In this document: positions 8,978 to 45,179 of the stretch, piece after piece
Layout: every line of letters starts with the position of its first letter
Position numbering within the stretch: position 1 is the stretch's first letter
NCBI GenBank assembly: GCA_937914775.1
Contig: CALDNB010000023.1
Location: 1 to 47,643 of the forward strand
Direction of reading: 5' to 3'
DNA: 47,643 nucleotides
DNA from: an uncultured Clostridia bacterium
GTDB taxonomy: Bacteria > Bacillota > Clostridia > Monoglobales > Firm-18
The notes under the pieces: generated by a model
Seen by the model: the letters and a program-made list of their open reading frames with translations, nothing else
What the model was told of the DNA's origin: nothing
Databases searched by the model: none
Position numbers and translations under genes: made by a program

Positions 8978-8984
8978 TAACTTT

Positions 8985-9070: not shown

Positions 9071-9096
9071 TGGTCTGAGTGGGGAGACTTGAACTC
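9069..9096. repeat. attL core: displaced copy of the tRNA-Pro 3' end
   Basis: TTTGGTCTGAGTGGGGAGACTTGAACTC is identical to 45101-45128. Confidence 0.85.
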
Positions 9097-27751: not shown

Positions 27752-28363
27752 ATGACATACAAAGAAAGTTTAGAAATTGCCTTTCGTTATGCCGACAGTA
27801 CGGAAAGTGATTTTGATTACAAAGAAATGTTTTACACCCTTGCCGATGAAGCGCAGAAGTTAATCGCAATTTACGGAAGACACATTTTAAGGACTATTGA
27901 AATTGTGCCGTTCCCGGAGGATGGTTTTGTTACGGTTTCTGCAGGCGGCAACGTTTCAAACGTTCCCTGCTCTGATTTCGGGAAAGAGGTTAAAATCCAG
28001 ATGCCAGATGATTTTCACGCCTTATCTCCCCAAGGGATTGTATATGCAGATGACTACACGTTACCTGTTGACTACAAATTTGTTGGTGAAACGGTGCTTT
28101 CCATCGTTCCTGATGACAAGTACACAGTAAATTACTATGCTTTACCGAAAACCATCAACGAAAACACTTCTGACGACTACGTTTACGAAGTGGATTCCGA
28201 CACACACAATGCCATTCCTTACTACATAGCATACCGTCTGGTGGGGACTGACGACATTACCTTATACCAGGCATTAAAAAACCAGTGGGATTTATACTTA
28301 TCATTATTTAACGACAGAGCAAAATGTGTAAGAAAACAAATAAGGAATTTTTACGGGAGGTAA
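27752..28363 (+). CDS. 203-aa virion protein (head-tail adaptor candidate)
   Basis: Called from position only. RBS AGGAGG. Confidence 0.45.
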   Translation: MTYKESLEIAFRYADSTESDFDYKEMFYTLADEAQKLIAIYGRHILRTIEIVPFPEDGFVTVSAGGNVSNVPCSDFGKEVKIQMPDDFHALSPQGIVYADDYTLPVDYKFVGETVLSIVPDDKYTVNYYALPKTINENTSDDYVYEVDSDTHNAIPYYIAYRLVGTDDITLYQALKNQWDLYLSLFNDRAKCVRKQIRNFYGR

Positions 28364-28368
28364 TTAAT

Positions 28369-30249
28369 GTGGCTATACAATACAAAGAAAAAGCACTTCC
28401 CTCTCCGCAAAAAATCGGTTTTTCCATTGACACGTTTTCAGGCATCAACATAAACGGCACTGCATCAAAAGGGGAATTTGTAAATTGCAAAAATTTATCC
28501 GGTGACAGATATCCTTACGCATCGCCCAGAGCATCGAAGGAAGTTATTGCAGATGGCATTGTGGCGCCGAAGAGGTTATTTTTCGCCGGTGACAACATGG
28601 CGTACATTGCAAACGGTCAGTTATACGTTAATACGGGTGAGGAATTTGAAAGCAAAGGTGTTGTCGGTGAGGTTAAATCCATTGTTGATTTTAATAATGC
28701 TGACGTATTGTTTTATCCGTCAAACTCCAAATACAGTATTAAAGACGGCACCTTATCAGATGTTACAGAGTATTTTGAAACAGGTCTGTTGGAAACTGGG
28801 AGATATGATAACAGGTACTTCGCTGATTATTATGACATTGAAAATGCTCCAAAGAAGAAAGATATTGAAGGCCACGCAATTTATTTAAAAGTTAACGGCT
28901 CAAGGGTTTTAAATCTTCCGCCATTGGAAAATGAGGACGGCACTCCAAAACTGGACGATGACGGAAATCCTTTGTATGGTTCTGTAACATTTAATGCTAC
29001 TGAAATTCCTGAAAAACTTATTGCAAATGGTGTTTACAAAAATGATCGTCTATATTTAAATCTGATAGTTTATCCTCTTAAAAATACGGGTGCAAGTGCA
29101 GGAAAGGCAAAACTATGCAATTTTGGCGAAGAAATATCATTTCCTTATGCTTCAATGATTATGGCGGATATCGTTATTTTTCATTACGGAATGATACCAC
29201 CGGACTATAGCAAATGCAAAAAGGAAGTTAACGCTCTATTAAATAACAAAGATTTTAAAGTATGGCTTACTGCAAGTACATATCCTGCACCTAACTCCAG
29301 ACCACACATTGATTACGCCTGTATGGACAACAACAGAGTAGTTGCGGTGCACAAAAACAGTTTTTATGCATCATCCTTAGGTGATTATACAAAGTGGACT
29401 GATTTTGTTGATGCAGAGGGTAATCCAAAAGCAACGGGCTCTTATGCAGAAGAATTAAACACTCCGGGCGACTTTAATTCCATTACCAAATACAACACTT
29501 CAGTTATTCTTACCAAAAACGATATTGTTTACGTCTGTTACGGAAACAAGCCACCATACAGAATAAACGAGGTTTGCAAGACCGGGTGTATTGACGGACG
29601 TACCATTGCGGAAGTTGATTCGTACCTTTACTGGCTTGGCCGTGACGGTATATACCGTTTCGGAGGCGGCAGTCCCCGTCTTATTTCACATAAAATCGGC
29701 GGTGATTTTGTTTCAGGCGTTGCAGTTGCAAATGGTCTTAAATATTACTGTTGTCTTTACGATGGTAAGTCCTACAAGATGTATGTGTATAACGCTCAAT
29801 ATGATTTCTGGCACATTGAGGACAGTGTTCAGTATGTGGACTTAGTTGCAAAAGACGGTATTGTTTACGGTCTTACTGCAGATGGAGAAATTGTTAAGTT
29901 CGATTCGGGTGACGAGAGGGTTTCCTGGTCATTTACAACTATTGATTTTGATTTCAGCACCGAATATACAAAGAACGTTGCAAAAGTTTACTGCAGATTA
30001 AAATTATACGACCAGGCATACGTTAATTTATACATTCGTTCAAACAAGCAGGACTGGTACAAATTTGCATCGTACAAGGCAGACGGGACAAACGTTTTTC
30101 AGGCAAAAGCAAAGTTAAAAAAATGCGATTATTTCACACTCAGGGTCGAGGGTGTAGGTGATGCGGAAATTATGGACATTTACGCAGATTGTCTTCTGGG
30201 CTCACAAAAGCACAGAAGTTCCGGATTATCGCAATTCAGAAAGGGGTAA
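28369..30249 (+). CDS. 626-aa virion structural protein (tail/nozzle candidate), GTG start
   Basis: GGGAGG lies 8 nt before GTG 28369. The track start at 28324 would overlap the upstream gene by 40 nt. Confidence 0.5.
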   Translation: MAIQYKEKALPSPQKIGFSIDTFSGININGTASKGEFVNCKNLSGDRYPYASPRASKEVIADGIVAPKRLFFAGDNMAYIANGQLYVNTGEEFESKGVVGEVKSIVDFNNADVLFYPSNSKYSIKDGTLSDVTEYFETGLLETGRYDNRYFADYYDIENAPKKKDIEGHAIYLKVNGSRVLNLPPLENEDGTPKLDDDGNPLYGSVTFNATEIPEKLIANGVYKNDRLYLNLIVYPLKNTGASAGKAKLCNFGEEISFPYASMIMADIVIFHYGMIPPDYSKCKKEVNALLNNKDFKVWLTASTYPAPNSRPHIDYACMDNNRVVAVHKNSFYASSLGDYTKWTDFVDAEGNPKATGSYAEELNTPGDFNSITKYNTSVILTKNDIVYVCYGNKPPYRINEVCKTGCIDGRTIAEVDSYLYWLGRDGIYRFGGGSPRLISHKIGGDFVSGVAVANGLKYYCCLYDGKSYKMYVYNAQYDFWHIEDSVQYVDLVAKDGIVYGLTADGEIVKFDSGDERVSWSFTTIDFDFSTEYTKNVAKVYCRLKLYDQAYVNLYIRSNKQDWYKFASYKADGTNVFQAKAKLKKCDYFTLRVEGVGDAEIMDIYADCLLGSQKHRSSGLSQFRKG

Positions 30250-30471: not shown

Positions 30472-32531
30472 ACATAAAATTTGATGCACAAGGCAGATTA
30501 GTGGGCTCAACTGACGGCACATACTTTGCAGTTCACGGTGACAACAACACATTAATAATCTATGCGGTTTTTGACGAGGGTTATGCAGATTTTACGGCTT
30601 ACAGACGTGCATACGTTAAAGCGGCAAACGGCAACTCTGATGTCATTGATTTAGTGGACGATGTGCTTACGGTACCTGACAATTTAGTTGTTAACGGTAC
30701 CACGAGCATTACTTTCGAACTTATAAAGGACAGCGGAGAAGTAAAGCGCATGGAGCAGGTGGACATTTCTGTTGAAAGAGCCGTTAACCTTGGTCAGGGC
30801 AGTGCTCCTGTTGCGTACACAGTTACTGTTTCAGTTGATGAAGTAATTACATCAGAGCCCGGAGGTGCTACACAGGTTGAAAACGTGGGTACCGAAAAAG
30901 ACGTTAAGTTAAAATTTACCATCCCACGTGGTGAACAAGGACCCAAAGGCGACAAGGGTGATGTTGGTCCCCAGGGTGAGCAGGGCGTTCCCGGTGAACA
31001 AGGGCCACGTGGGGAGCAGGGTGTCAAGGGCGACAAAGGTGATGTTGGTCCTCAGGGGGAACAAGGCGTTCCCGGAGAGCAAGGTCCGCAAGGAGAACAG
31101 GGTGTTCCTGGAGAACAAGGACCACAGGGAGAGGTCGGACCTCAAGGCGAACAAGGCCCTAAAGGAGACAAAGGCGATAAAGGCGACACCGGGGAAAAAG
31201 GAGACAAAGGCGATAAAGGTGACGTTGAAATTAACAGTGATACTGTAAATTCTTTGACAGAGATAATATTCGACCCGGAAAGTGTTGTTGAAGTACCAGG
31301 AAGCTTTGACGGAACAGATGCTGCAATTGTTGACTTTAAAGCAGTTATTGATGTTGACGGAGAAGAAAAGACCATCACCAAAGACACAGAGGGTTTGGAC
31401 AGTTTTTATATTGGCGGTGATTATAACCATCACCTTGGGGACAATGGGGATGAATATGAGTCTTTTGACTGCAAAACGCTGCCATTTGAATTAGAGCCGT
31501 ATGATGATTATATTGTACAGATTTTCCGAATTGAATATAACGGTGTTGAGTATCACACATGGAATTTTACTATATCTCTTGCGAAAAACTATTCAAAACT
31601 TGCTACCACTAAATTTGTTAAAGAAAAGGTTGCTTTTGCCGGCACAAAAGCAGACGTAAACATGAGAAACGTTGGTGCTGCCGGTGCGAAATATCTTCAA
31701 TATATTGTTTTTCAGTCGGGAGCAACAAGAGAGGTTGAAGGTTGGGACAGTTTTGACGGCACAAATCACAATCTTATTGATTTCAAGTTAGTAACCACAA
31801 TCAACGGAGTTGAAACAACGCTTACAAAGGATACGGAAGGCGTAACGGGTTATAGAATTTCAGGCGGATTTAACAACGGTGAATATGTCAGAGACATAAC
31901 CGATTTGCCGTATGCAATATCAGGCACTTGCGGTGTTGATGCTATTTCTGTAACATACAACGGCAAAGTTTATTCAAACTACGACAGTACAACAACATAC
32001 TCTGCTCTTGTAGTGGAGGATATGAACGACACTGTTGATGATAAGATGGCTACCGAAAAGTATGTAAAAAAGAAAATTGACGAAATTGATGTTGGTGGTA
32101 ATACAGACTTATCAAAAGTAAGTGGTGAAGACGTTAAAAAACTTACCGAAGTATCTTTCTATGAGAGCACACGGGAAGTTCAGGTGTGGTCAGGGGAACA
32201 TATTTCTGACAGCAATACATTTATTATTGATTTTAAAGTAAGTATTAATGCAGATGGTGAACAAAAAATCATTACCAAAGATACAGAGGGCTTGGAAAGT
32301 TTTGAAATTACTTATATGGATATGCTTTCAAGTTCAGATTATTCTTGTGATAGTTTGCCGTGTGAATTGGCTTGTGACGTTGCCATGATAAACACCGTTT
32401 CCTTTGTATACAACGGTACAGAATATACTGTTAATAGTTTGGAGGATGTGGTTGTACTGGGTAAAAACAGCGACAAGATAGCAACGTTGTCAGAGTTATT
32501 GGCACTTATCGGAGACGAGGTGAGTTACTGA
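30468..32531 (+). CDS. collagen-like tail fibre with three repeated C-terminal modules
   Basis: 33 uninterrupted G-X-Y triplets, then three modules of ~130 aa sharing FDGT..(I/L)(V/I)DFK..(D/N)G(E/V)..T(I/L)TKDTEG. Confidence 0.8.
30930..31226 (+). repeat. collagen G-X-Y coding repeat (33 triplets)
   Basis: [26 protein letters not shown]..., counted directly. Confidence 0.9.
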
Positions 32532-33475
32532 TGGCTAAAAAGTTATACGAAGAAAGCAATATTCAAGCCATTGCCGATGCTATAAGGGAGAAAAACGGCA
32601 CTACCGATACTTACAAGGTAAGTGAAATGGCAAGTGCTATTGAAGAAATAGAAGCAGGTGGTGGTAGTGGTATCAATCCTGAATGGACTAATTGGAAATA
32701 TTTTAGTTGCAATAATAATCGTAACGATTTGGTGGAAAAACTAAAATTTAGTGACACAAGTAATGGTACAGATTTTACTTCTATGTTTAGCAGTTGCTCA
32801 AAATTAACAACAATACCTTTAATAGACATTAGCAAAGGTAAAACTTTTGACAGTATGTTTTATAACTGTACTGGATTAACAACGATACCGCAATTAGATT
32901 ATAGTAGTGGGACATCTTTTCACCAACTGTTTAACGGTTGCTCGAAATTAACAACAATACCTCAGCTCAACACAAGCAACGGAACTAAGTTTACTTATAT
33001 GTTTTATGGTTGTAGCGAATTAACGACTATACCACAATTAGATGTTAGTGGTGGAACGGACTTTAGTTATATGTTTAACGGTTGCTCAAAATTAACTGAA
33101 ATACCCGAATTAGATACGAGCAACAGTAATACATTTTATGCTATGTTCTATAATTGTTATGCTTTAACTACTATACCATTGTTAGATGTTAGTAAAGCAA
33201 AAACAGGTTCATACAGTTTAAGCGGTTTGTTTAGTGGTTGCAGAGAATTAGTAAACGTAACCTTTGCTGGTACATTTCCGATAACATCAAATTTATCTGT
33301 ATTCAGTAGTTCAAGTAAACTAACCGTAGATAGTTTAATGAGTTTTATCAATGCTTTAAGTGACAATAGCGGTCTATCAACTACATATACAGTAACGATA
33401 GGAAGTACAAACCTTGCTAAATTAACACCTGAACAAATAGCAATAGCAACAAATAAAAATATAATACTTGCATAA
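32531..33475 (+). CDS. BspA-type leucine-rich-repeat protein (receptor-binding candidate)
   Basis: Six or more ~23-aa repeats of the form F..C..LTTIP.LD.S.GT.F..MF. Confidence 0.75.
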   Translation: MAKKLYEESNIQAIADAIREKNGTTDTYKVSEMASAIEEIEAGGGSGINPEWTNWKYFSCNNNRNDLVEKLKFSDTSNGTDFTSMFSSCSKLTTIPLIDISKGKTFDSMFYNCTGLTTIPQLDYSSGTSFHQLFNGCSKLTTIPQLNTSNGTKFTYMFYGCSELTTIPQLDVSGGTDFSYMFNGCSKLTEIPELDTSNSNTFYAMFYNCYALTTIPLLDVSKAKTGSYSLSGLFSGCRELVNVTFAGTFPITSNLSVFSSSSKLTVDSLMSFINALSDNSGLSTTYTVTIGSTNLAKLTPEQIAIATNKNIILA

Positions 33476-33490
33476 AAGGGGGATTTTAAT

Positions 33491-33841
33491 GTGTGGAGTT
33501 TTACAGACGATTATAGTATATTACCAAACTTATATGTGAGAAGCCGTTTGAAAGACGGAGCATTGCAGTATTTTCAAATATATCCTTGCGACGGATATGT
33601 ATTGAGAACACCGATTATGGACGAATACCAAATGGACGAAGAAGGGAACTATGTTTTTGACGAAAATGGAGAGCGTATTTTAGTTATGCCTTATCGTACT
33701 TGGGGTGGTGCGACAGCATTGAAAAATTATGATTTCACAACAAATCCGAGTGGTTTTTGTGCAGAATTATATGATGAAAGTATGACTATTTTCGGTGATG
33801 TTACAGATAAACCTATTGAAGAAATTACAGAACAGGAGTGA
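33491..33841 (+). CDS. hypothetical 116-aa protein (GTG start)
   Basis: AAGGGGG RBS. Confidence 0.45.
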   Translation: MWSFTDDYSILPNLYVRSRLKDGALQYFQIYPCDGYVLRTPIMDEYQMDEEGNYVFDENGERILVMPYRTWGGATALKNYDFTTNPSGFCAELYDESMTIFGDVTDKPIEEITEQE

Positions 33842-33846
33842 TTTTT

Positions 33847-34746
33847 ATGAATAAAACATTTGGAGTTATACCGGAATATGTAAGCCACACACGGAACTAT
33901 GATTACGAGATGGTATGCGGTGCAAGTGGTACGGACTTCCCGGAAGAGTATGAAATACCGAGAGATAACACAGGCACGCTGAAAAATCAAGGCGGTGTAG
34001 GTGCCTGTGCGGCAGAAACAATTGCACAGATTGCAGAAAGTTTCTACCAGGAAGAGATGTCAGAGGGTTACATATACACTGAGTTCAGAGAGCCAACCTT
34101 AACCTGCGCCGGTTTAATCGTCTCAAAGGCAATGGATTTCTGGACTTCCATCGGCACATTACCCAAAAAGTATTTTGATTTACTTGGTGAGATGCCCGAA
34201 TTTAAGCAAATTACCAACAATTTTCCAGAATTGCACAAATTTGCATCAAAGCATAAATTAAAAGGTTATGCATCAATTGGCTATGCAGACAAAACAAGAA
34301 GGGACAATGCCATTAAAGATGCCCTTACAAAGTTCAAGCGTGGCTTAGTAGCGGTATCAAACGAATATTTTGGCGGCAGTCATTGTATTGTGTTAACGGG
34401 ATGGAATGACAAAAAAGACAAATATAAAATCAAAAATTCGTGGGGTAAGACCTACGGAGACAACGGCTTTGCAGAAATACCTAAGAGTGCAATTAATGCC
34501 GTGTACGTTCCATTTTTTGAGGATATTATGTTACCGTTTACCGATGTTAAGGAAACAGACTGGTTTTTCAAAGATGTTAAGGCAATGTATTTTGCCGAGA
34601 TGATGAAAGGAACAAGCGACACAACCTTTGAGCCGGACAAACCTATGACAAGGGCAGAAATGGCTACATTAACAAACAGAATACTCAAGTTAATTGACGA
34701 AAGATTTGATATTTTCAACAGAGTTATGGCAGAAAAGTTAAAGTAG
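33847..34746 (+). CDS. papain-family (C1) cysteine peptidase fused to an SLH domain
   Basis: QGGVGACAAE (Cys), GGSHCIVLTGW (His) and YKIKNSWG (Asn-Ser-Trp). C-terminal SLH: FTDVKETDWFFKDV..GTSDTTFEPDKPMTRAEMATL. Confidence 0.8.
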   Translation: MNKTFGVIPEYVSHTRNYDYEMVCGASGTDFPEEYEIPRDNTGTLKNQGGVGACAAETIAQIAESFYQEEMSEGYIYTEFREPTLTCAGLIVSKAMDFWTSIGTLPKKYFDLLGEMPEFKQITNNFPELHKFASKHKLKGYASIGYADKTRRDNAIKDALTKFKRGLVAVSNEYFGGSHCIVLTGWNDKKDKYKIKNSWGKTYGDNGFAEIPKSAINAVYVPFFEDIMLPFTDVKETDWFFKDVKAMYFAEMMKGTSDTTFEPDKPMTRAEMATLTNRILKLIDERFDIFNRVMAEKLK

Positions 34747-34754
34747 GGGTTAAT

Positions 34755-35387
34755 ATGGAATTTACAAACATACCAAATCAGTTACTTAAAGGTGCGTTAA
34801 CGCCTCTTGTTTTATCAAAAGTTGATACCATAGTTTTACATCACATGGCACATCCTATAGCTGACGTTAAAATGGTGGAAAATTGGCACGTTAACGGGAA
34901 CGGCTGGTGTGCCATCGGATACAACTACTGGATTGGCTTTGACGGGAAGATTTACAAAGGCAGAGGCCTTAACAAAGGTGCTGCTGTTGAAAATCACAAC
35001 AGTCACATTATATCAATTGGTTTTCAGGGGGACTACAGTCAGAATTTCGCCTCGATGCCGGACAGTCAGTTTAATTCCGGTATTGACCTGATTTTATGGC
35101 TGAAAAGCAAAATACCGGGTGCAAAATCGATTGTGGGCCACAAGCATTTTGGCGGCACGATTTGTCCCGGACAATATTTTCCTTTAGAGGAAATGAAAAC
35201 ATTAAAGAAAAGAGATGTTTTTATGTACAACACATTAGAGGAGTGTCCGTCATGGGCGCAACCTACAATAAAAAAATTAATCAGCAAAGGTTACCTTAAA
35301 GGAAACGAAAAAGGTGAACTGGAGTTGAATTATACTATGTTAAAAATACTTGTAATTAACGACAGAGCAGGTATTTACGATTTATAA
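34755..35387 (+). CDS. N-acetylmuramoyl-L-alanine amidase endolysin (Amidase_2/PGRP type)
   Basis: IVLHHMAH, GYNYWIGFDGKIYKGRG, GHKHFGGTICPG. The C-terminal ~50 aa look like a wall-binding segment resembling half an SLH domain. Confidence 0.85.
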   Translation: MEFTNIPNQLLKGALTPLVLSKVDTIVLHHMAHPIADVKMVENWHVNGNGWCAIGYNYWIGFDGKIYKGRGLNKGAAVENHNSHIISIGFQGDYSQNFASMPDSQFNSGIDLILWLKSKIPGAKSIVGHKHFGGTICPGQYFPLEEMKTLKKRDVFMYNTLEECPSWAQPTIKKLISKGYLKGNEKGELELNYTMLKILVINDRAGIYDL

Positions 35388-35401: not shown

Positions 35402-35791
35402 ATGTCAAAAGTAATTATTGCGATTAAAGTCGGTTTTACCGCAATTGTCGGCGGATTATCAGTTTTATTAGGCGGTTTTGATGCTTTAATTATCTGTTTA
35501 TGCTCTCTGGTGATTTTCGACTACATAACAGGCGTTTTTTGCGGAATTATCCAAAAGAAACTGAACAGCAGGACGGGGTTTATAGGCATTATCAAAAAAG
35601 TCTGTATTTTTTTAGTAGTTGCCGTTGCAAACAGCATTGGTGATATTACAGGCATAAGCGGACTTCGTGACATTGCCGTTTCATTCTACATAGCCAATGA
35701 GGGCATATCAATAATCGAAAATTTAGGTATCATAGGCGTACCTTTACCTAAAAAATTAATAGAAATACTTGAACAGTTAAAAAACAAATAG
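35402..35791 (+). CDS. holin (holin_4_1 / TcdE-like family)
   Basis: 129 aa, three or four TM segments. FDYITG..KLNS..G..G..KK..F and ANEGISIIENL. Confidence 0.8.
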   Translation: MSKVIIAIKVGFTAIVGGLSVLLGGFDALIICLCSLVIFDYITGVFCGIIQKKLNSRTGFIGIIKKVCIFLVVAVANSIGDITGISGLRDIAVSFYIANEGISIIENLGIIGVPLPKKLIEILEQLKNK

Positions 35792-35803: not shown

Positions 35804-36862
35804 ATGGCTATTTATGATATGTCACAAAATGATTTGTATACGTATGCTAACAACAAAAGGATTGCAGAGACCACGGACGTAAATTCGGCGGAATACGGAA
35901 GAGCAACGGCTGAAAACCAAAATCTTCGTAATATTTACGGTATCGAGTCCGACGACTACAATTACGAAGCATTTTCAAAGAAATACATTGCCGGCGGACT
36001 TAAAGACCAGTCAAACAAGTATTTAAAGCGTTTAGACAGTGGCTACAAATCAAAATACGGTGACCAGTTACGGTCCGATGCGGCAGCGATAAGAAATTTT
36101 ACTTACAATCCCAACAGTGACCCGAATTTTAAAGTGTATGCTGATATGTATGCACGTCAGGGCAAGGCGGCGCAGGGTCAGACGTTATCAGAGTTGACGG
36201 GTATATCGGGAGGCAGGAACAACAGTTGGGCTTCTGCTGCAGTTGGTCAGGTAGGACAGGCATACGCCCAGAAGACAGCGGATATGATTCCGCAGTTGGC
36301 AGAACAGGCGTACAACAAGTTATTACAGAATTACAACCTGACAAGAGACCTGGAGGAAACTGATTATCAGCGCTTCAATGACAATTTCAACAGAAACAAA
36401 CTCCTTGCCGATTCTTTCTACGACAGATACAACACTGAGTATGACAGGATAAACAACGATTTAGACCGGTGGCGCCAGAACAAATACAACGACCTGGCAT
36501 ACGCTTCCCAGATGTTACAGTATGAACTTGACAAGCAGTATTTATCACCTGAAAGGCAGTTGGCTCTTGAGCAGTTAAAGCAGCAGGTGGAAAGCGGAAA
36601 GTTGTCAAATCAGCAGTTGAAAATTGCCCTTAAGTATCTTGATGACGGTTATTCTTTAGACAATGCCATTAAGAGAGCGCAGTTGGAAAATTTTAATAAG
36701 GGGTCAGGACCAGATGGTGGACCTGGCCCCGGATATGACGGAACAGATATAGCTGCTTATTTAGCATGGCTGAACTCTATGGATGAAAAGGCAAAAAAAG
36801 ACGACGAAATGCTTTATAAGATTGACAACAGAAACTATCTTGTTCAGGACCTTTGGAAATAG
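35804..36862 (+). CDS. 352-aa Q/N/Y-rich protein, internal-virion candidate
   Basis: AGGAGGGG RBS. No recognisable motif. Paired with the giant ORF. Confidence 0.5.
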   Translation: MAIYDMSQNDLYTYANNKRIAETTDVNSAEYGRATAENQNLRNIYGIESDDYNYEAFSKKYIAGGLKDQSNKYLKRLDSGYKSKYGDQLRSDAAAIRNFTYNPNSDPNFKVYADMYARQGKAAQGQTLSELTGISGGRNNSWASAAVGQVGQAYAQKTADMIPQLAEQAYNKLLQNYNLTRDLEETDYQRFNDNFNRNKLLADSFYDRYNTEYDRINNDLDRWRQNKYNDLAYASQMLQYELDKQYLSPERQLALEQLKQQVESGKLSNQQLKIALKYLDDGYSLDNAIKRAQLENFNKGSGPDGGPGPGYDGTDIAAYLAWLNSMDEKAKKDDEMLYKIDNRNYLVQDLWK

Positions 36863-36874
36863 GAGGATAAATCT

Positions 36875-39800
36875 ATGGCAATTGATTACGAAAAAACGTT
36901 AAGGGCGGCATATTTGCCGTCCCTTGACGGTAAATTACCTTCTCAAAAGCAGGAGGATATATACAAGTTTGACGGGAAATTTACTCCGTATCTTACTCCG
37001 GAACAAAAGGAAAAACAGGAGGAAATACAAAGGTATTATGAAAATATTATCAAAAAGCAACAGTTGACGGAGCCACAGGATAATACTTATAAGTTTGACG
37101 GCATTTTTACCAAAGAACAAAAGAAAATGCGTGATTTATTAAAAGCCCTTTTTACAGAAACAGAAAAAGAACGTGCCAAAGCGGAGAAGGAAAAATTTGA
37201 AAAGGACGCACTTCAGCGCGAAAAAACAAGAATTACCCGTAATGCTGATTTTGAAAAGTTATCAAAGTTTGATGACACCAAAGACTACAGCACAGAGGAT
37301 ATTTATTTTCTTGTTAATAATCCATCCCACGCAGACAAAGCAATACATTTAGACGGCAGATATAAAGATATTATAAAAAATATGGACGATATCGAAAGAA
37401 GAACATTTACATACCATGCAAACAAGCATGGCTCAGATAGAGCAACACAATATTTTTTGGGTCTTGAGCCAACGATAAAAGAACGTATGGCAAACGGTGA
37501 GCATTACCAGGAATATTATTCTGACCTTAATCAGGAAATTAAGGACATGGAAAGGGTAAGACAAGCCACCGATTTTGACCAGTACAAGAACGTGGCAGAG
37601 GGAGAACTTGACGTATTAGGTTTGGTGTATTCTAAAAACAAGGGCATTCCCGGCAATGGAGATTTTGAGAAAATAGCCAATTTTATGGAGCCATACGAAA
37701 AAGAAACCTATAACTATTATTTTCATAAATTTGGCGAAGAATCTGCTCTTAATTACTACAAATTAATTGAAAGAAAGATAAACCAAAGGCAGGCAGAATA
37801 TAAATCAAAACAGACTACTGAATTTGCCGAAGAACATCCTGTTCTTGCAGATGTTAGTTATCCAATTGCTTCTCTTGGTAATTTTGCAGGTCTTTTAGCA
37901 ACTGCAGGTCAAAACATCAAAAACAACGTCACCGGTAAAGACGTTCCTGTTGACATTAACAGCAGAGCATTCAGCACCGTCAGGTACAGAAACGACGTTC
38001 AACAGTCATTGACAGAGGGCAAAAGCGGTCTTGAACAGTTATTAATAAGCACCGGTTTATCTATAGGAGATATGATGGTAGCATTGCCTTTTGGTGCCTC
38101 TGCAGGTGCCGCTATTCTTGGTAGTAATGCGGCATCACACACTGCGTATGATGTTATGGAACGTGGCGGCTCAACGGCACAAGCATTAGGGCTTGGTATT
38201 GCTGCAGGTGTTACAGAGTATATAACAGAAAAAATTCCCCTTGAAAATATATTCAAACTTGCTAAAGGTCCAAAACTTACATTTACCAAAAAAGTAATTA
38301 ATGTTTTAAAACAGTCAGGAATGGAAGGTACGGAAGAATTTATAAGCGAAATCGCCAATAATGTATATGACGATTTAATTATGGGCGAGAAATCCAACTT
38401 CAACGTTACTAAAAACAAATATATTGAAATGGGCTATTCAGAAGTCGAGGCATCTCTAAAAGCATTTACAGATTGTTATGTTGTTAATCCCCTTATGGCT
38501 TTTGCAGGCGGCGCTATCTCCGGTGGTGTAATGGGTACCGGCGGTGTTACTGTGTCGGATTTTAAACAAAACATGATGACGAAAACCGAAAAAGATGTTT
38601 CAAAAATTGTAAGAAATGCGGTTGTACCGTCAACTGAGCCGTCTTCGAAGCAGGTGACACCTGCGCAGACTGACAATAAGGTTATATCAACTGAGATGTC
38701 TGATGTTGGGAAAGCGGCAGAGATGAAACAAAATAATGAAAATGTTGCATCTGATAATGGAAATGTTGAAAAAAGTACAAAGCCACTGACTATTGAACAA
38801 AAAATCAGGGCTTTTCTTAAAAGTGAAAACAAAAGAGTTTCAACTGCCACAGGAAAAACACTTACAGAAGATGCTTTTTCCATAGTAGAGCCAACAACAA
38901 GAAAACAGAAAAATCTTGTTAAGGACTGCGCATCTCTTGGCATCGAAGTCAGGTACATCAAGACACAAAACAATGATATTATTGGAACATCTCACAACAT
39001 CAACGGCGCATACAGAGACGGGGTTATTTACATTAACGAAGATGCACAAAATCCATACAGGGTTGTTCTTGGCCACGAAGTGACACATCAGATTAAAGTT
39101 ACAGACGTTAAGGCATACAATGCTTTAGAAGACATTGCAAGGAAGCACATCGGGGAAAGTTTTGATAATTTAACGCTGGACAAGCAAGAGGAAGCGGTTG
39201 CAGACTTTGTAGGTGCTGTTATGGACAATCCAAGAGCGTACAAGAGTGTGTTCCAACAGAACAGAAACTTATTACAGCGCTTCATCGAGGCGGTTGACAG
39301 TATCATTGGCAAATTCAGAGGCACTGAAACATACAACGACGACCTGGGCAAAATGCTTGATGACACCAAAGCGGAACTTACGGGTGAGGATGTAGGTGAG
39401 ACGAAGTATAATTATAGTTTAGATTTTGGTCAGCAACTACAAGATTGGTTTGATGGTCAAGGTAAAAAATACGGAACATATAACGGGGAATATTTTGATT
39501 TTGGCACTACTCCTGATAAATTAATTAAACATGGTGCTTCAAAAAACAAAACCATTATTACAGAGAATTGTATTATTAAGGTAACTGGAGGAAAACATTC
39601 GATAAGTATTGATGAACTGAAAAAGTTACCGTTTGAATTAAATGACCCTGTTTTATTGTTCAAGAGTACTTATAAAGATAAGTTCGGAAATTCAAAAAAA
39701 GCTTTTGTTGCTTTGACAGAATTAAAAGACAAATCTGGTAATGATGTAATTGCTGCTATTCACATCAACGTATCGCATGGTCATAATATTGTTGATAGAA

Positions 39801-42800
39801 TCTCAAGTATTTATAGCAAATCAGATGAATTTGGAAACAATAAAATTCTTGAATATGTTAACACACAAATAGGTCTTGGGAATCTTTGCGATGGAAACAT
39901 AAAAAAAGCATCGAATTGGTTTACGACTAAAGGGCTCCAATTGCCCAACGTGGTTCAAACCATAATCGATGCTAACAATATGGTATCACAAGATGAACCA
40001 ATTGTCAATAACAATTATATGCAGGATGGGGAAAATGATACACAAGGCACCACAAAACATTCCAGAATGACCGAGAAAGCAAACAAATTACAAAGAAAAG
40101 ACCCAACCAAACTTACCGAAAATGATTTTAGAGAATTATTAGATTCTTCAAAAAGGAAAGTATTTTCTGATAATACATATATTCCTGCAAGGACAAATAC
40201 TCCTCAGATTTTAATTGATTTTGCTAAGGAATTGGGGTATATACTTGAAAATCATCCTTTGGCTATGAGTGTTTACAAGACACGTCAAGCTTTATCTAAC
40301 GAACAAGAATGGGACGGTTATTTTCATGATAAGCCGCACAATTTGACGTCTGATGAAATCATAGACATTATTAAGGGAATGGATAATCCGTCATACTTAG
40401 TTTTTCAAACTCAAAATGAGAGATTTGCCGAAATTGTTAAGTTTACAAAAGACGGCGGGAATGCAAAGGCTTACGCAATTATAGATTTTTTTGATATTGA
40501 TAAGAACCCTGAATATATGAATGGATATAATGGTGGCAAATATAACATTTTAGTAACTATTTATCCATCAGATGATTCATTGGAATTAAAACAGTATTTA
40601 AATAATAAAAATAATATTGTTTTAACTGGAGATGAAATAAAAAAGAAAACCTCATCACAAAGAGGTTCGGGCAGCTTTGTGCCGTCGCATTTAAATGACT
40701 TGGCTTTCTATAATGATAGTATAACCAATCCTGAAGAAAAAGTCAAGGATGAAATTTCTGACACCACAAAACATTCCAGAATGACCGAGAATGCTGACAC
40801 AAGCGCTGCGTCAGAGCAGCAGAGTAATGTTATTGACAGCAATTCAAAGGTTAACAATTACCTGCGGAGAGCGAGAACGATGTTTGTTAACGATGTTGAA
40901 GAGTTAATGAACATACCAAAAGTGCTAAAAAACAACGATTTAAAGCAGGTATTTAATCAACTGTGGAATGAGTACAAGGAAAGTGGGAAAATCGCTCCTG
41001 ATTCGTTTAACAAGGTATTTGATATGCTTTACGAGAACGGAAAGGCAATCAGCACAGAGTTCTACGAGCAATACAAGGACTTAAAAGCAGACATCCGAAA
41101 CACACATTTCCGTATTACTGATGACATTAAGAGTTCTATTCCTGATTTTGAGCAATTCAGAAGAAGAAACATCAGTACATTCAAAACTGCGGCAGACGGA
41201 GTGTCAGTTGATTCGTATTACGAGGAATTATCGGCATCTTATCCTGATTTATTCCCGGAAGACATAATTGCACCTGCAGACAGGTTATTACGAATTGCAG
41301 AGGTTGCAAAGAGCATAAAGCCACAGGAAGACGGTTTTGACACGTTCTCTCCCGAATACAAGGACCACATACGCCAACAGTTTGAAAATTCTTTTTCAAA
41401 GGTGACAGACCAGTTCCACTGGGCCAAACGTTATCTTGACGACAAGGTATCAGTTGATAGTGAGGAAGACGTTGTATATACTGCGGAGCAGGTTGAACAA
41501 TTATACAAACAAAAAACGTTACAAGAACTTGTAGTAGAAAAACTAAAAGACAACGAGTTATTGACAGAAAAGGACGAAACAACGGCAGAGCGTCTTGCAA
41601 AGGGAGAAATTACTGTTGATGAAATTCCAAAAGATTGTTGGCGTGAGGGTGTTATTGAGTTAGGAAATGCACAGAAGGAGTTATTTGATACCGAAAGAAG
41701 CATCAGTAAACACAATGACGGAATAAAGGCAATGTACAGAGCAGAAGCGGAAGCGTTAATTGAAAGTTCTGACGACTGGAAAGACAGCAAGGCAATGTTT
41801 AAGTTTACTCTTTTAACTCCTGAGCGTATTATTCGTTCTATTGTTAAAAACGAGGATGTTGCAAACAGAATAATCAACAAGTTTTTCGTTCCAATAGGTA
41901 AAGCCAACGCAAAAACTGTTAAATTCATCAACGGTTATGCAAAAAGAGTTGATGCGCTTAAGTTAACAAAGGAAGAAAGTGAAGCAGTACAATTTATCGG
42001 AGAAAAGCAGGCATCTATAACAAACGAAAATGATGCTGCAAAAAAAGAGGAACTTACAAAGGAACTGGAAGATTTCTTTTTGGAGCACAAAAACCTTGAT
42101 ATGAAAAAAATAAATTTTGCAATTAAGGAGTTCCGTGCTATTTACAATGACATATTTAAGCAGATAAATGATGTTTTAATTGCAAATGGTTACGGCCCGA
42201 TTGAGTACAGAAAAGACTATTTTCCGCATTTCACGGAAGATGACAGCAATTTATTGAACAAAATTGCAAAAGTTATAGGTGTTGACACTTCTGTTACAGA
42301 GTTACCTGCAGATTTAACAGGCAAAACTGCTGCCTTCAGACCAGGGAAGACCTTTTTCCAGAATGCTTTGCAGAGAAAAGGTAATACAACAACATTTGAT
42401 GCAGTGGAAGGATTTAACAGATATATTAAAGGCGCTGCAGATGTTATTTTTCAAACAGAAAATATTCAGCGCTTAAGAGCACTTGACAACGCCATCAGGT
42501 ACAAATATTCGAAAAAAGGTGTCCAGGAAGCAATCAAGAAAATTGAAGAAGACCCTTTTATTGCGTTTGAGGATAAAAAATCACGTATTGATGACCTTAC
42601 AACAAAGAACTTATCAAAGCACAACGGTCTTGTAAACTGGCTTACAGAATATACTAATGTTCTTGCAAACAAGAAATCCTATGCGGATAGGCCTGACGAA
42701 AAGAATTTCGGCAGAACTCTTACATATCGGCTTTCCCTTTGGTGGCAGAAAAATTATGCTGTAAACATGGTGTTACACAATGTTTCGAGTGCTTTATCAA

Positions 42801-44923
42801 ACACGGTTCCATTACAACAGGCGTATTCAGTAATAAACAGCAGAGATTTTGCATGCGGAATGTATGATACTATTAAAAACATCAAAGAGAGTGACGGTTT
42901 TGCAGATAAGTCTGATTTCCTTACAATCAGAAAAGGTGCATTTGCTGCAGGAGAAACTAAATTACAAAAATTCGGCGAAGCAGCAAACTTAATGGAGCAC
43001 ACTGATTTATTTGTTTGTCAGGCAATAGTACGTGCAAGATATTACGAAAACATGAGAGTTCGCAAGATGTCAGAGGCAGAAGCGTTAGCGGAAGCAGACG
43101 ATTTTGCTAAATCTCTTATTGCAGGACGTGGAAAAGGTGATTTACCTCTTATATTCACTGAAACGACTTTTAAAAAAAGGTTATTTACTTCATTCCAACT
43201 TGAGGTTAACAACCAGTTACAATTTTTATTTAAAGATGCACCGAAACGTATTTTAGATGAAAAGGGCATAAAAGGTCTTGCAAATTACATTATCAAGTAT
43301 TTGATTTCTGCTTATATTTACAACGAGTTTTTTGAAAAAATCACCGGCAGAAAAATTGCCATTGATCCGTTAGGGTTTGTTGAGTCCTGCATCGAGTCAT
43401 ACACCGGTATAAGAATACCAAACAAACTTGATATGCTTATGGGTGAAAAAATCAAGTATGAAAAAAACAACGATGGATTCGACCGTGTAGGTGCTGTTTT
43501 TAAAACAGCAAAGGAAGAAATTACAGACCAGATACCGTTTGTTGGTTCCTTGCTTGGCGGTGGACGTATTCCTGCTGCGATGGCAATTCCTGATATGGTA
43601 TCAATCGGCTCATCAATTAAAAATCTTGTTAGCGGAGAGGGAGATGTTGGTAAGAATGTTGAAAATCTTATTACAGACGGTATTCTTCCATTGGCTTATG
43701 GATTTAATAAATTTGGCGGGTTAAATCAGGCAAAAAAGACTGTTCAGGGTATCTCAACTGTTATGAAGGGTGAAGTGCTTGACAACAAGGGTAAATTAAA
43801 GTACGGAGTTGAGCAAACGCTGGGTAATTACATCAAAGGTGCAATTCTTGGGCCGTCATCATTAAAAGACACAAGAGATTTTTACGATGCAGGCGGCAAA
43901 GGACTTACTGATACAGAGCAGAAGTATTATGACAAGGTTACGGAAAGTGGCGTGTCAAAGTACGAGGCATATCAGAACGTAATAGGTGTCAGAAATGCAA
44001 AGAACGAAATATCTCGAAAGAACACTTTCTACAGAATTATGTCCAACGACAAATTTGTGGGCAATGTTAAACTTGGCGCTGACAATGCTGCTTACCAGGA
44101 GATAATGCGGCTTAAAAAAGCAGACACAGGCATATCACTTGATTACACAGTTCCTGACAATTCATTTAAGGTGAATGGAGAAGACGTATTCCTTACCAAC
44201 GCAAAATACAGAAAATATGCTTCTGAGTGCAGCAAGTCTGCTCTTGACGGTATCAAGACATTAATTGCCACGGATTATTACAAAAAGGCAAGTGACGTGG
44301 AAAAGGCGGAGTTAATTGAGGAAATTTACTCTTATTCAAAAGGCATTTCGAAAACTAAAGTGTCAAAATACGAGCCGGAATCAGACGTGCTTAAAGCAAC
44401 ACTTGCGAAAAAAAGCAAAGTTAGTGTTGGTGACTATTTTACATTTAAAAAGCAGTTACCCGAAAAGTACAACGAGGCAGATGCATATTCACTTACACAG
44501 GAATTAAAAATGTCAGAAGAGCAGGCGACAATGCTTACAAATCTTTCAAAGTATTCCTACGACCAATGCAAAAGGTTGCAGGATGCAGGTGGCTTTAAGT
44601 ACAGTCAGCAGGTGAGACGTTTATATACTTCGATGCGTCAGAGAGGTTATGACTGCGACACGATATATGCGCCGATGGTCAGCAAGACGTTTAAGTACAC
44701 CAACAAGAAGCAGGGCATCAGTTACGAGACACAGTTATCAGATGACGATATGCTTAAATTACAGAAAGTGTATTTACACTTATACGAAAAGAAGTTGGGC
44801 GAAGCGTTCCAGCACAATTACAGAAGTATAGAAAGTTTATACGATACTGTTGAGTCTGCACGTTATTCCACAATGACCGAGGCAAAGAAGATATTTTATC
44901 AATATCTGCAGCAGAAGAAGTAA
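36875..44923 (+). CDS. 2682-aa multidomain polyvalent-type virion/ejection protein with a zincin HExxH
   Basis: Uninterrupted ORF with RBS AGGAGG. VVLGHEVTHQ (nt 39074-39088), Gly/Ala-rich hydrophobic blocks, and repeated TTKHSRMTE linkers. Confidence 0.8.
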   Translation: MAIDYEKTLRAAYLPSLDGKLPSQKQEDIYKFDGKFTPYLTPEQKEKQEEIQRYYENIIKKQQLTEPQDNTYKFDGIFTKEQKKMRDLLKALFTETEKERAKAEKEKFEKDALQREKTRITRNADFEKLSKFDDTKDYSTEDIYFLVNNPSHADKAIHLDGRYKDIIKNMDDIERRTFTYHANKHGSDRATQYFLGLEPTIKERMANGEHYQEYYSDLNQEIKDMERVRQATDFDQYKNVAEGELDVLGLVYSKNKGIPGNGDFEKIANFMEPYEKETYNYYFHKFGEESALNYYKLIERKINQRQAEYKSKQTTEFAEEHPVLADVSYPIASLGNFAGLLATAGQNIKNNVTGKDVPVDINSRAFSTVRYRNDVQQSLTEGKSGLEQLLISTGLSIGDMMVALPFGASAGAAILGSNAASHTAYDVMERGGSTAQALGLGIAAGVTEYITEKIPLENIFKLAKGPKLTFTKKVINVLKQSGMEGTEEFISEIANNVYDDLIMGEKSNFNVTKNKYIEMGYSEVEASLKAFTDCYVVNPLMAFAGGAISGGVMGTGGVTVSDFKQNMMTKTEKDVSKIVRNAVVPSTEPSSKQVTPAQTDNKVISTEMSDVGKAAEMKQNNENVASDNGNVEKSTKPLTIEQKIRAFLKSENKRVSTATGKTLTEDAFSIVEPTTRKQKNLVKDCASLGIEVRYIKTQNNDIIGTSHNINGAYRDGVIYINEDAQNPYRVVLGHEVTHQIKVTDVKAYNALEDIARKHIGESFDNLTLDKQEEAVADFVGAVMDNPRAYKSVFQQNRNLLQRFIEAVDSIIGKFRGTETYNDDLGKMLDDTKAELTGEDVGETKYNYSLDFGQQLQDWFDGQGKKYGTYNGEYFDFGTTPDKLIKHGASKNKTIITENCIIKVTGGKHSISIDELKKLPFELNDPVLLFKSTYKDKFGNSKKAFVALTELKDKSGNDVIAAIHINVSHGHNIVDRISSIYSKSDEFGNNKILEYVNTQIGLGNLCDGNIKKASNWFTTKGLQLPNVVQTIIDANNMVSQDEPIVNNNYMQDGENDTQGTTKHSRMTEKANKLQRKDPTKLTENDFRELLDSSKRKVFSDNTYIPARTNTPQILIDFAKELGYILENHPLAMSVYKTRQALSNEQEWDGYFHDKPHNLTSDEIIDIIKGMDNPSYLVFQTQNERFAEIVKFTKDGGNAKAYAIIDFFDIDKNPEYMNGYNGGKYNILVTIYPSDDSLELKQYLNNKNNIVLTGDEIKKKTSSQRGSGSFVPSHLNDLAFYNDSITNPEEKVKDEISDTTKHSRMTENADTSAASEQQSNVIDSNSKVNNYLRRARTMFVNDVEELMNIPKVLKNNDLKQVFNQLWNEYKESGKIAPDSFNKVFDMLYENGKAISTEFYEQYKDLKADIRNTHFRITDDIKSSIPDFEQFRRRNISTFKTAADGVSVDSYYEELSASYPDLFPEDIIAPADRLLRIAEVAKSIKPQEDGFDTFSPEYKDHIRQQFENSFSKVTDQFHWAKRYLDDKVSVDSEEDVVYTAEQVEQLYKQKTLQELVVEKLKDNELLTEKDETTAERLAKGEITVDEIPKDCWREGVIELGNAQKELFDTERSISKHNDGIKAMYRAEAEALIESSDDWKDSKAMFKFTLLTPERIIRSIVKNEDVANRIINKFFVPIGKANAKTVKFINGYAKRVDALKLTKEESEAVQFIGEKQASITNENDAAKKEELTKELEDFFLEHKNLDMKKINFAIKEFRAIYNDIFKQINDVLIANGYGPIEYRKDYFPHFTEDDSNLLNKIAKVIGVDTSVTELPADLTGKTAAFRPGKTFFQNALQRKGNTTTFDAVEGFNRYIKGAADVIFQTENIQRLRALDNAIRYKYSKKGVQEAIKKIEEDPFIAFEDKKSRIDDLTTKNLSKHNGLVNWLTEYTNVLANKKSYADRPDEKNFGRTLTYRLSLWWQKNYAVNMVLHNVSSALSNTVPLQQAYSVINSRDFACGMYDTIKNIKESDGFADKSDFLTIRKGAFAAGETKLQKFGEAANLMEHTDLFVCQAIVRARYYENMRVRKMSEAEALAEADDFAKSLIAGRGKGDLPLIFTETTFKKRLFTSFQLEVNNQLQFLFKDAPKRILDEKGIKGLANYIIKYLISAYIYNEFFEKITGRKIAIDPLGFVESCIESYTGIRIPNKLDMLMGEKIKYEKNNDGFDRVGAVFKTAKEEITDQIPFVGSLLGGGRIPAAMAIPDMVSIGSSIKNLVSGEGDVGKNVENLITDGILPLAYGFNKFGGLNQAKKTVQGISTVMKGEVLDNKGKLKYGVEQTLGNYIKGAILGPSSLKDTRDFYDAGGKGLTDTEQKYYDKVTESGVSKYEAYQNVIGVRNAKNEISRKNTFYRIMSNDKFVGNVKLGADNAAYQEIMRLKKADTGISLDYTVPDNSFKVNGEDVFLTNAKYRKYASECSKSALDGIKTLIATDYYKKASDVEKAELIEEIYSYSKGISKTKVSKYEPESDVLKATLAKKSKVSVGDYFTFKKQLPEKYNEADAYSLTQELKMSEEQATMLTNLSKYSYDQCKRLQDAGGFKYSQQVRRLYTSMRQRGYDCDTIYAPMVSKTFKYTNKKQGISYETQLSDDDMLKLQKVYLHLYEKKLGEAFQHNYRSIESLYDTVESARYSTMTEAKKIFYQYLQQKK
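40048..40077 (+). repeat. 30-bp exact direct repeat, copy 1
   Basis: CACCACAAAACATTCCAGAATGACCGAGAA. Confidence 0.9.
40762..40791 (+). repeat. 30-bp exact direct repeat, copy 2
   Basis: Identical 30-mer, 714 bp downstream of copy 1. Confidence 0.9.
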
Positions 44924-44926: not shown

Positions 44927-44957
44927 AAAAAAGGGGTTGAAAATCAACCCCTTTTTT
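44927..44957 (+). terminator. rho-independent (bidirectional) terminator
   Basis: AAAAAAGGGGTTGA-AAA-TCAACCCCTTTTTT. Confidence 0.75.
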
Positions 44958-44995
44958 GACATCATTTTGACATCATTGACATCATTTTGACATCC
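44956..44995 (+). repeat. four TTGACATC(A/C) direct repeats (candidate integrase/Xis arm sites)
   Basis: Copies at 44956, 44967, 44976 and 44987, spaced 11, 9 and 11 bp. Confidence 0.7.
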
Positions 44996-45100: not shown

Positions 45101-45128
45101 TTTGGTCTGAGTGGGGAGACTTGAACTC
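45101..45128. repeat. attR core (within the tRNA-Pro 3' end)
   Basis: Identical to 9069-9096. Confidence 0.85.
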
Positions 45129-45179
45129 CCGGCCTCTTGAACCCCATTCAAGCACGCTACCAAACTGCGCTACACCCAG
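45103..45179 (-). tRNA. tRNA-Pro, anticodon GGG, 77 nt with encoded CCA
   Basis: Folded by hand. Acceptor CTGGGTG/CACTCAG (C1-G72), D arm GCGC/GCGT, anticodon arm CTTGA-ATGGGGT-TCAAG, T arm GGGAG-TTCAAGT-CTCCC, A73, CCA. Confidence 0.9.

Follow-up and report, generated by a model that had tools for sequence, protein, structure and literature searches.

The giant gene at the right end of the prophage

Contig CALDNB010000023.1 (GenBank assembly GCA_937914775.1) of an uncultured Clostridia bacterium, of which the whole stretch of 47,643 nucleotides (nt) was analysed and is referred to here as the window, harbours a prophage whose rightmost gene specifies a protein of 2682 amino acids (aa). In silico analysis of this giant gene, of its relatives and of its surroundings supports the assignment of its product to the polyvalent-protein class, which was described in 2017 (Iyer, Burroughs, Anand, de Souza, Aravind; PMC5512222). 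The gene, its expression signals and the parts of the encoded protein are located as follows.

36861..36866, + strand: AGGAGG ribosome-binding site of the giant gene, read from the sequence
36875..44923, + strand: giant polyvalent-protein gene, 2682 aa, from the open reading frame list and translation
36875..37684, + strand: variable N-terminal region, aa 1-270, with two internal duplications
37685..38629, + strand: conserved Gly/Ala-rich helical block, aa 271-585, present in 154 of the 285 collected family proteins (phrog_22978)
38852..39379, + strand: zincin-like metallopeptidase domain, aa 660-835, with HExxH in 241 of 244 family domains
39452..40047, + strand: cassette 1, MuF_C/PBECR type, aa 860-1058 (Pfam match aa 907-996; His908, Ser978)
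40048..40077, + strand: exact 30-nt direct repeat, copy 1, encoding TTKHSRMTE, found by sequence comparison
40070..40762, + strand: cassette 2, divergent MuF_C/PBECR-like, aa 1066-1296 (His1155, Thr1228)
40762..40791, + strand: exact 30-nt direct repeat, copy 2, 714 nt after copy 1 and in frame with it
40772..44071, + strand: conserved all-alpha core, aa 1300-2399, where all 118 homologues listed align
44072..44923, + strand: variable C-terminal tail, aa 2400-2682, and stop codon, common to three relatives only and with no Pfam match
44927..44957, no strand: hairpin (14-bp stem) flanked on either side by T/A runs, 3′ of the giant stop codon

The open reading frame (ORF) starts with ATG and was read through 2682 codons with zero interruptions, in agreement with an earlier, sequence-only reading of this DNA, which had reported one uninterrupted 8,049-nt ORF (36875..44923, + strand). 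The strong ribosome-binding site proposed in that reading was recovered as the AGGAGG at 36861-36866, positioned 8 nt 5′ of the ATG and overlapping the TAG stop codon of a 352-aa gene, and every peptide that it quoted is present in the translation, the motifs being located at aa 29, 71, 174, 275, 394, 439, 542, 730, 1059, 1297 and 2220. The 352-aa gene and the giant gene are separated by a gap of just 12 nt, and a sequence scan revealed no promoter above background upstream of the giant gene. The hairpin that follows the stop codon reads as a two-way terminator closing the late operon. Comparison of the giant gene with a 79%-identical relative in locus L006 returned a ratio of nonsynonymous to synonymous substitution rates (dN/dS) of 0.23 over 1357 codons, thereby indicating that the gene is functional and under purifying selection.

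A zincin-like peptidase and two predicted RNase cassettes

The domain content of the giant protein and of its homologues is that of a polyvalent protein, as the sequence-only reading had suggested, and this assignment is supported by a MuF_C match above the Pfam cut-off, a conserved HExxH…E arrangement, PolyVal domains in homologues and matches of the core to viral protein models in BFVD. The giant protein is a large multidomain product (2682 aa) of a prophage that has att repeats, an integrase, a terminase, a portal and a major capsid protein; it contains at least two domains of disparate activity, namely the zincin motif and MuF_C, with class-specific domains in homologues built on the same chassis; and it is encoded among late/virion genes.

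The zincin-like domain contains HEVTH at aa 734-738 (nt 39074-39088), the single HExxH of the giant protein, followed by a predicted third zinc ligand, E773 (nt 39191-39193). The sequence-only reading had singled out this motif within VVLGHEVTHQ, and it proved to be conserved throughout the family: among 25 diverse relatives H734 and E735 are invariant, and conservation of H738 and E773 is 90% or higher. In the AlphaFold2 (AF2) model the domain is predicted to form a small beta sheet followed by the HExxH helix, at predicted local distance difference test (pLDDT) values of 73-85; zincin-like MPTase domains have been described as consisting of a sheet of three strands, a helix that carries HExxH and a following helix that contributes a Glu (Iyer et al., PMC5512222). 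Two of the 25 relatives match the MPTase-PolyVal model and four match DUF6782, all of them weakly, and a profile of the domain retrieved WLM/M48 peptidases from PDB sequences at E values of 0.3-0.9 at best. Foldseek searches of PDB with the AF2 model of aa 271-1300, a multi-domain model in which the zincin domain and cassette 2 were not matched separately, gave no match below an E value of 0.06. By its motif and predicted fold we regard the domain as a probable zincin lying outside any named Pfam model.

The segment that follows had been described as two cassettes of approximately 220 aa bounded by TTKHSRMTE and left unassigned; the cassettes are indeed present, with the repeat at aa 1059 and 1297, but both are assignable to MuF_C/PBECR. 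MuF_C was the only model matched in Pfam scans of the whole protein and of its segments, cassette 1 matching PF18819 with an E value of 6e-19 and 68.6 bits (cut-off 27.6), and this MuF_C part was poorly modelled by AF2 in the aa 271-1300 model (pLDDT <50). No Pfam model was matched by cassette 2, for which hhalign against an independent MuF_C alignment, with no rows in common, gave a probability of 97.1% and an E value of 6.6e-11, and AF2 predicted one helix followed by four strands (pLDDT 79-92). The likeness of the two cassettes to each other was missed by pairwise BLASTP and required profiles to be seen. MuF_C has been classed as PBECR, a predicted RNase of the BECR fold, the activity being a prediction for the family as a whole (Iyer et al., PMC5512222), and the His and Ser/Thr positions of active PBECR domains have been given (Iyer et al., PMC5512222, section 19). 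These residues are retained as H908/S978 in cassette 1 and H1155/T1228 in cassette 2, and among relatives of cassette 2 the corresponding columns hold His in 18 of 19 sequences and Thr in 16 of 19. Both cassettes are accordingly MuF_C/PBECR-type domains, predicted to function as metal-independent RNases.

A 30-nt repeat and exchange of cassettes

The pair of TTKHSRMTE peptides reflects an exact repeat at the DNA level, while the DNA flanking the two 30-nt copies is dissimilar, and such a repeat cannot be attributed to chance within 8 kb. Recombination between the copies would delete cassette 2 precisely and in frame. TTKHSRMTE was found in no other family member and is therefore not a family-wide cleavage motif; the repeat is more plausibly a recombination scar, or a site at which the cassette could be lost in frame, than a conserved cleavage site. 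Copies of cassette 2 that are 42-66% identical occur in otherwise unrelated proteins and mark this cassette as mobile. Exchange of cassettes between related phages was evident from direct comparison of family members. P0005 and P0008 are encoded by the same type of prophage at one and the same chromosomal position; they share 94% and 86% identity in the parts that flank a segment of approximately 200 aa, which in one protein is MuF_C and in the other PBECR3. P0013 corresponds to P0012 with an insertion of approximately 540 aa, LPD3 and an ADP-ribosyltransferase toxin domain being present in P0013 and not in P0012.

The helical core, the Gly/Ala block and the variable ends

The C-terminal region of approximately 1,400 aa, as it was delimited by the sequence-only reading, is really a conserved core of approximately 1100 aa (aa ~1300-2399) and a variable tail of 283 aa, and most of it is family core and not a string of effectors; the glycine-rich segment noted at aa 2220 stands, and corresponds to an invariant motif, IPFVGSLLGGGRIPAAMAIPD, at aa 2220-2242 (nt 43532-43600). 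AF2 predicts the core to be wholly alpha-helical (pLDDT 69; predicted template modelling score 0.58), and approximately 50 residues, mostly polar, are invariant across 17 sequences of 25-34% identity. Searches of Pfam, NCBIfam and PDB with the core, by sequence, profile or fold, found no match (Foldseek: none below E 0.06). It does match 63 BFVD models at E values of 1e-3 or less, often at 10-13% identity, and those that are named are C-terminal fragments of giant phage proteins with PolyVal ART, LPD3, MuF-C, nuclease, methylase or SNF2 ATPase designations. By these matches the core is a body common to many phage polyvalent proteins.

The Gly/Ala block, whose only match is phrog_22978, an unnamed giant-protein PHROG, is helical in the AF2 model, with pLDDT values of approximately 85-95 at aa 271-320 and 420-550. 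Its description as a hydrophobic Gly/Ala block is correct in so far as its Gly and Ala content reaches 25%, while transmembrane-like hydropathy is confined to aa 389-415. The N-terminal duplications, too, were borne out: the YKFDG pair at aa 29 and 71 was detected by BLASTP (E 6e-5), and the second, in which aa ~160-213 copy the family motif at aa 271-314, was missed by pairwise BLASTP and seen by profile, aa ~160-210 being matched at E 2e-12 by a family profile of the region preceding the Gly/Ala block that had been built with the protein's own N-terminus masked. The sole homologue of the N-terminal region is P0125, a partial match of 61% identity; a joined query of the variable N-terminus, cassette 2 and the C-terminal tail returned relatives for cassette 2 and one partial N-terminal homologue.

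A widespread family with a fixed layout

A search of 5.8 billion proteins returned 909 matches, these being giant proteins of 2400-3900 aa on contigs mostly of 10-90 kb, within a family whose members span 2000-3900 aa overall, and an exhaustive HMMER search with the core only returned 2873 cluster representatives at 50% identity, 1558 of which fell below 1e-30. Nearly every genome with a match was assembled from metagenomes and belongs to gut Clostridia (Oscillospiraceae, Lachnospiraceae, Butyricicoccaceae and Christensenellaceae), and a yak-rectum Clostridia genome, at 75% identity, is the nearest; relatives are also encoded on 373 IMG/VR contigs, and among the contigs listed those above approximately 45 kb are rare. 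Conservation is concentrated at aa 271-584, aa 700-814 and aa ~1300/1560-2390 of the giant protein, and variation affects the N-terminus, aa 830-1300 and the terminal 283 aa. The order of parts was constant in 151 diverse members and identical in all 90 of 90 complete proteins: a variable N-terminus (median 266 aa), the Gly/Ala block, the zincin domain, a variable stretch of 42-1479 aa, the core of approximately 1100 aa and a variable tail (median 263 aa).

A Pfam scan of 29 full-length members identified ART-PolyVal, LPD23, PBECR5, MuF_C, PBECR3, LPD3 and ddrB-ParB domains, and nearly all such matches in P0016 and P0145, the members for which coordinates were listed, lie between the zincin domain and the core. 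The ART-PolyVal, LPD3, LPD23, PBECR and ddrB-ParB families were defined from polyvalent proteins by Iyer et al. (PMC5512222). For the giant protein itself PHROGs returned its unnamed giant-protein family alone, NCBIfam returned no match, and PDB sequence searches with the protein, the full-family profile and the zincin profile returned low-complexity or designed helical proteins and nothing meaningful. In two family loci with the 3422-aa version of the giant protein, L003 (2133-3230) and L004 (304-1401), a reverse transcriptase gene (RVT_1) is situated beside a CBM_5_12 gene upstream of the tail genes, and probably represents a diversity-generating retroelement.

Partner genes and prophage setting

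Outside the giant gene the following features of the prophage are relevant.

28324..30249, + strand: 641-aa gene, first of a conserved three-gene module (phrog_511, ‘internal virion protein’)
35804..36862, + strand: partner gene (352 aa) in translational coupling with the giant gene; 21 related loci have a homologue 4-18 nt 5′ of their giant gene
45101..45128, no strand: attR core, 3′ end of tRNA-Pro, with an identical 28-bp attL core at 9069-9096

No family was assigned to the 352-aa protein in PHROGs, Pfam and NCBIfam scans. In 20 loci the 352-like gene is immediately preceded by a homologue of the 641-aa gene, and in relatives for which head genes are present the observed order is portal, a scaffold-sized gene, major head protein, small genes, a gene of ~600 aa, one of ~300-450 aa, the giant gene, fibre and lysis. 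The module of 641-like, 352-like and giant genes occupies the slot of T7 gp13-16 and of N4 gp52-50. In the prophage described here the fibre and lysis block divides the 641-aa gene from the 352-aa/giant pair, and in four other loci a holin gene is found approximately 1.1 kb upstream of the giant gene. The placement of the giant gene after the lysis genes and outside the tail module, as claimed in the sequence-only reading, holds here, but many relatives place the gene inside the structural block. In locus L005 a ParE-toxin/antitoxin pair (8310-8803, − strand) is inserted between the ~623-aa and ~344-aa genes upstream of the giant gene; L001, a prophage that is nearly identical in other respects, is without this pair.

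The prophage of approximately 36 kb lies between two copies (9069 and 45101) of a 28-bp direct repeat that corresponds to the 3′ end of tRNA-Pro(ggg) (45103-45179), and is integrated in this tRNA gene with the integrase gene (9140-10159) adjoining attL. PHROGs assigned small and large terminase subunits, a portal, a major head protein, a collagen-like tail fibre, an amidase (34755-35387) and a holin (35402-35791), the latter two being located upstream of the giant gene. Genes of 203 aa and 641 aa and the collagen-like fibre directly follow the head genes. The element has the appearance of a temperate, podovirus-like phage with a short tail. The giant gene is the last late gene, 3′ of the holin and 352-aa genes and in the same orientation as the late genes, and no ORF was found between its stop codon and the att repeat at 45101, in keeping with the sequence-only reading, by which it was the last gene before attR.

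A number of further features of the window were noted. A second tyrosine-recombinase-like ORF of 190 aa with a GTG start (21041-21613, + strand; phrog_216, E 4e-52) is situated just 5′ of the small terminase gene, far from the integrase at attL. Between the tail fibre and the amidase lie two genes (32531-33475 and 33838-34746, + strand), one of which encodes a product resembling PARCEL-repeat surface proteins (TIGR02167, E 1e-18) and the other a product with a weak NEAT/LRR-like and peptidase-like match; both may be receptor-binding or cell-wall-binding tail parts. Just inside attR there are approximately three overlapping copies of TTTTTGACATCATTTTGACATCA (44953-44995), which also occurs ~65 nt outside attL on the host side (8982-9004), and the L006 relative carries TTGACAAC repeats at the equivalent place, ahead of a different tRNA. 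These repeats are probably integrase or excisionase arm sites, and the TTTTTGACATCATTTTGACATCA copy on the host side of attL may be what is left of the right end of a related prophage that occupied the same tRNA earlier. The host flank to the left of the prophage (2844-5996 and 7151-8131, + strand) encodes a 1050-aa WG-repeat protein and a WYL/WCX regulator, for which no link to the phage was seen.

Proposed function of the giant protein

Taken together with the precedents of phi24B gp47, N4 gp50 and T7 gp16, to which the protein would be analogous, the features described above make it probable that the giant protein is an encapsidated, ejected and effector-carrying internal virion protein of a short-tailed phage. 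A role in the virion is favoured by the podovirus-like character of the phage and the failure to find a tape-measure gene, by the shared orientation with the late genes and the 12-nt spacing from the upstream gene, by the position of the gene within the structural block of relatives, by the all-helical core and by the matches of the core to phage polyvalent proteins in BFVD. Encapsidation, ejection, self-cleavage and an RNase activity together with its targets would be anticipated from membership of the class, coupling to the late operon, synteny, the helical core and these precedents. According to this model the giant protein would be synthesized late, co-translationally with its 352-aa partner, packed inside the capsid as an internal virion protein, and ejected through the tail, either before the DNA or along with it. 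Passage of the DNA across the Gram-positive envelope might then be aided by the helical core and by the hydrophobic Gly-rich segments, and the peptidase might free or activate the RNase cassettes, which would cleave host or defence RNAs early in infection; recombination at the cassette borders would alter the effector set between related phages.

Several observations weigh against this proposal. Presence in the virion is presumed from synteny and from precedents in other phages, both for this phage and for the whole core family. When the families of the core, the Gly/Ala block, the zincin domain and the 641-aa and 352-aa proteins were compared by hhalign with T7 gp13-16, N4 gp50-54 and Stx gp67/68, no similarity emerged, nor did Foldseek searches of PDB, which includes T7 gp16, reveal any; because these profile and fold comparisons are negative, the link to known ejection proteins is one of analogy and synteny only. 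Just one segment (aa 389-415) is hydrophobic enough for a membrane helix, the zincin domain scores below every Pfam threshold, including that of the MPTase-PolyVal model, and the approximately 50 invariant polar residues of the core could mark an enzyme and not a conduit. Finally, the giant gene adjoins attR, where genes for lysogenic conversion also occur.

This last point, together with the swappable toxin-type cassettes (BECR-fold RNases here, ADP-ribosyltransferases in relatives) and the occurrence of MuF_C domains in MuF polymorphic toxins of temperate phages (PMC5576092), could be taken to indicate that the last gene before attR specifies a factor for lysogenic conversion or competition, that is, a MuF-type polymorphic toxin or another prophage-expressed weapon which is released by lysis or exported and is not a virion protein. 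We consider this unlikely, as the protein has no Phage_Mu_F N-terminal domain and carries its cassettes internally, no immunity gene lies downstream, with the stop codon being followed by a terminator and then attR, the N-terminus is hydrophilic and free of any signal-peptide-like stretch, and the gene shows translational coupling to the late operon and is found inside the structural block in relatives. That same structural-gene slot, and a large helical core under purifying selection, would also suit a protein with solely structural or assembly functions in the head interior or tail hub, one that stays with the particle, employs its peptidase in maturation and its MuF_C domains in binding nucleic acid in the capsid, and delivers no effector; the MuF-C of Mu gp30 is probably such a non-catalytic binder (Iyer et al., PMC5512222, section 19). 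The His and Ser/Thr of active PBECR domains are, however, kept in both cassettes, the ADP-ribosyltransferases and nucleases of relatives make sense only in the host cell, and the rapid turnover of cassettes points to an arms race, so that a solely structural role is in our view a minority prospect, albeit one to be taken somewhat more seriously than the toxin.

The extreme length of the protein, its Gly/Ala-rich hydrophobic segments, which are a property of many tape measures, and its late genome position might also suggest a tape-measure protein or another long-tail component. The protein has no such match in Pfam or PHROGs, and scans of the giant gene and its neighbours against both revealed no tape measure, tail tube, sheath or chaperone genes, thus no tape-measure architecture with chaperones, which scans of this kind do not formally exclude; moreover, the 203-aa and 641-aa genes and the collagen-like fibre come directly after the head genes, and enzymatic polyvalent domains are found in family members, all of which renders this explanation very improbable. 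Still more improbable is a virion RNA polymerase transcribing early genes after injection, as in N4, even though N4 gp50 is a virion protein of 3500 aa with a zincin domain (PMC5512222, section 8) that follows a 644-aa virion protein in the N4 genome: a motif search for RNA polymerase found none, hhalign against N4 gp50 was empty, there was no polymerase among the PDB or BFVD matches, and it is not obvious why a temperate phage with a repressor module would require such an enzyme.

Beyond the proposal of an ejected effector carrier, the core, along with the Gly/Ala block and the 641-aa and 352-aa partners, could conceivably constitute an undescribed and very widespread genome-delivery machine of the short-tailed phages that infect Gram-positive gut bacteria, which would take the role of T7 gp14-16, to which no homology is detectable, and double as a fixed chassis for cassette swaps at short repeats; we advance this tentatively, at somewhat less than an even chance. 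In a stronger variant of the same idea the approximately 50 invariant polar residues of the core may mark an enzymatic activity.

As regards novelty, the giant gene is a typical example of an already published class, and its description amounts mainly to solid annotation and not to a new principle. What is not described in the cited literature on polyvalent proteins and prophages is the size and constancy of the core family, the three-gene module, the cryptic second PBECR and the 30-nt repeat on either side of it. In gut Clostridia such prophages are very common, as seen from the 2873 core clusters and 373 IMG/VR contigs, and approximately two thirds of the length of their largest gene is without a family model. 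The domain map, comprising a chassis and RNase, ADP-ribosyltransferase and nuclease cassettes, provides constructs for work on early host takeover and anti-defence, on protein injection by Gram-positive podoviruses and on cassette swapping.

Comparison with known systems

The giant protein resembles the MuF polymorphic toxins (Jamet 2017, PMC5576092) in being a temperate-phage protein with exchangeable toxin-type modules and a relation to MuF by name, but differs from them in having no N-terminal MuF domain, internally located modules and no immunity gene downstream. The resemblance to the internal virion protein IVP-D, of which T7 gp16 is an example, is of a different kind: both are the largest of consecutive genes after the head/tail-tube genes and both are extensively alpha-helical, in accordance with the extensively alpha-helical nature reported for internal virion proteins (PMC4819975). 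Relatives of IVP-D, such as N4 gp50 and H66 gp60, are known to host extra domains (Hardies 2016, PMC4819975) and share with the giant protein the presence of domains able to act only in the host cytoplasm. The giant protein has no detectable sequence or fold similarity to T7 gp16 and no lytic transglycosylase domain, and its Gram-positive host presents no periplasm to span; in hhalign comparisons, of limited sensitivity owing to single-sequence targets, probabilities did not exceed 1.1% against T7 gp16 and 8% against N4 gp50 and Stx gp68.

A further parallel may be drawn with the Stx phage phi24B, whose gp47 is a polyvalent protein of 2811 aa with MuF-C that is abundant in virions by proteomics and has been proposed to be an encapsidated ejection protein (bioRxiv 10.64898/2026.04.10.717836). 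Like phi24B gp47 and gp68 (2793 aa) of Shigella phage 75/02, the giant protein has MuF_C (28% identity between the Stx protein and aa 874-1024 of the giant protein) and HExxH and is specified by the last late-operon gene of a temperate podovirus; no similarity was detected beyond MuF_C and a weak zincin match, and the phi24B protein differs in its Gram-negative host and in its other domains (LPD5, LPD1 and LPD38). In the Stx phage 75/02 (locus L077, 6853-15234) the 2793-aa protein is annotated as an ‘LPD5 domain-containing protein’ and is encoded by the last late gene, preceded by a 421-aa gene, an arrangement that by analogy parallels the pair of 352-aa and giant genes. Among prophages of gut Clostridia, phi1 and phi4 of Clostridium clostridioforme LM41 (Lachnospiraceae) are predicted podovirus-like prophages of approximately 41 kb, reported in 2024, whose last ORF of approximately 8 kb (about 20% of the genome) is similar to ‘LPD3 Podoviridae sp.’ proteins, and particles released by LM41 were podovirus-like in appearance (PMC11318856). 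The prophage described here is also from gut Clostridia and ends in an ORF of approximately 8 kb at its 3′ terminus, a likeness that is one of description, and the LM41 paper (PMC11318856) contains no domain dissection of its 8-kb ORF.

By class the giant protein corresponds to the phage polyvalent proteins of Iyer et al. None of the Pfam models from that study is matched by the core of approximately 1100 aa or by the Gly/Ala block, the zincin domain falls short of the MPTase-PolyVal model, and no fusion to MuF (Phage_Mu_F) or to a portal is present. In common with those proteins, however, the giant protein is a giant multidomain product of a prophage, encoded among late/virion genes, that combines a zincin-like peptidase with PBECR/MuF-C, and its relatives carry ART-PolyVal, LPD3, LPD23, PBECR3/5 and ddrB-ParB domains in orthologue architectures that differ strongly from one another.

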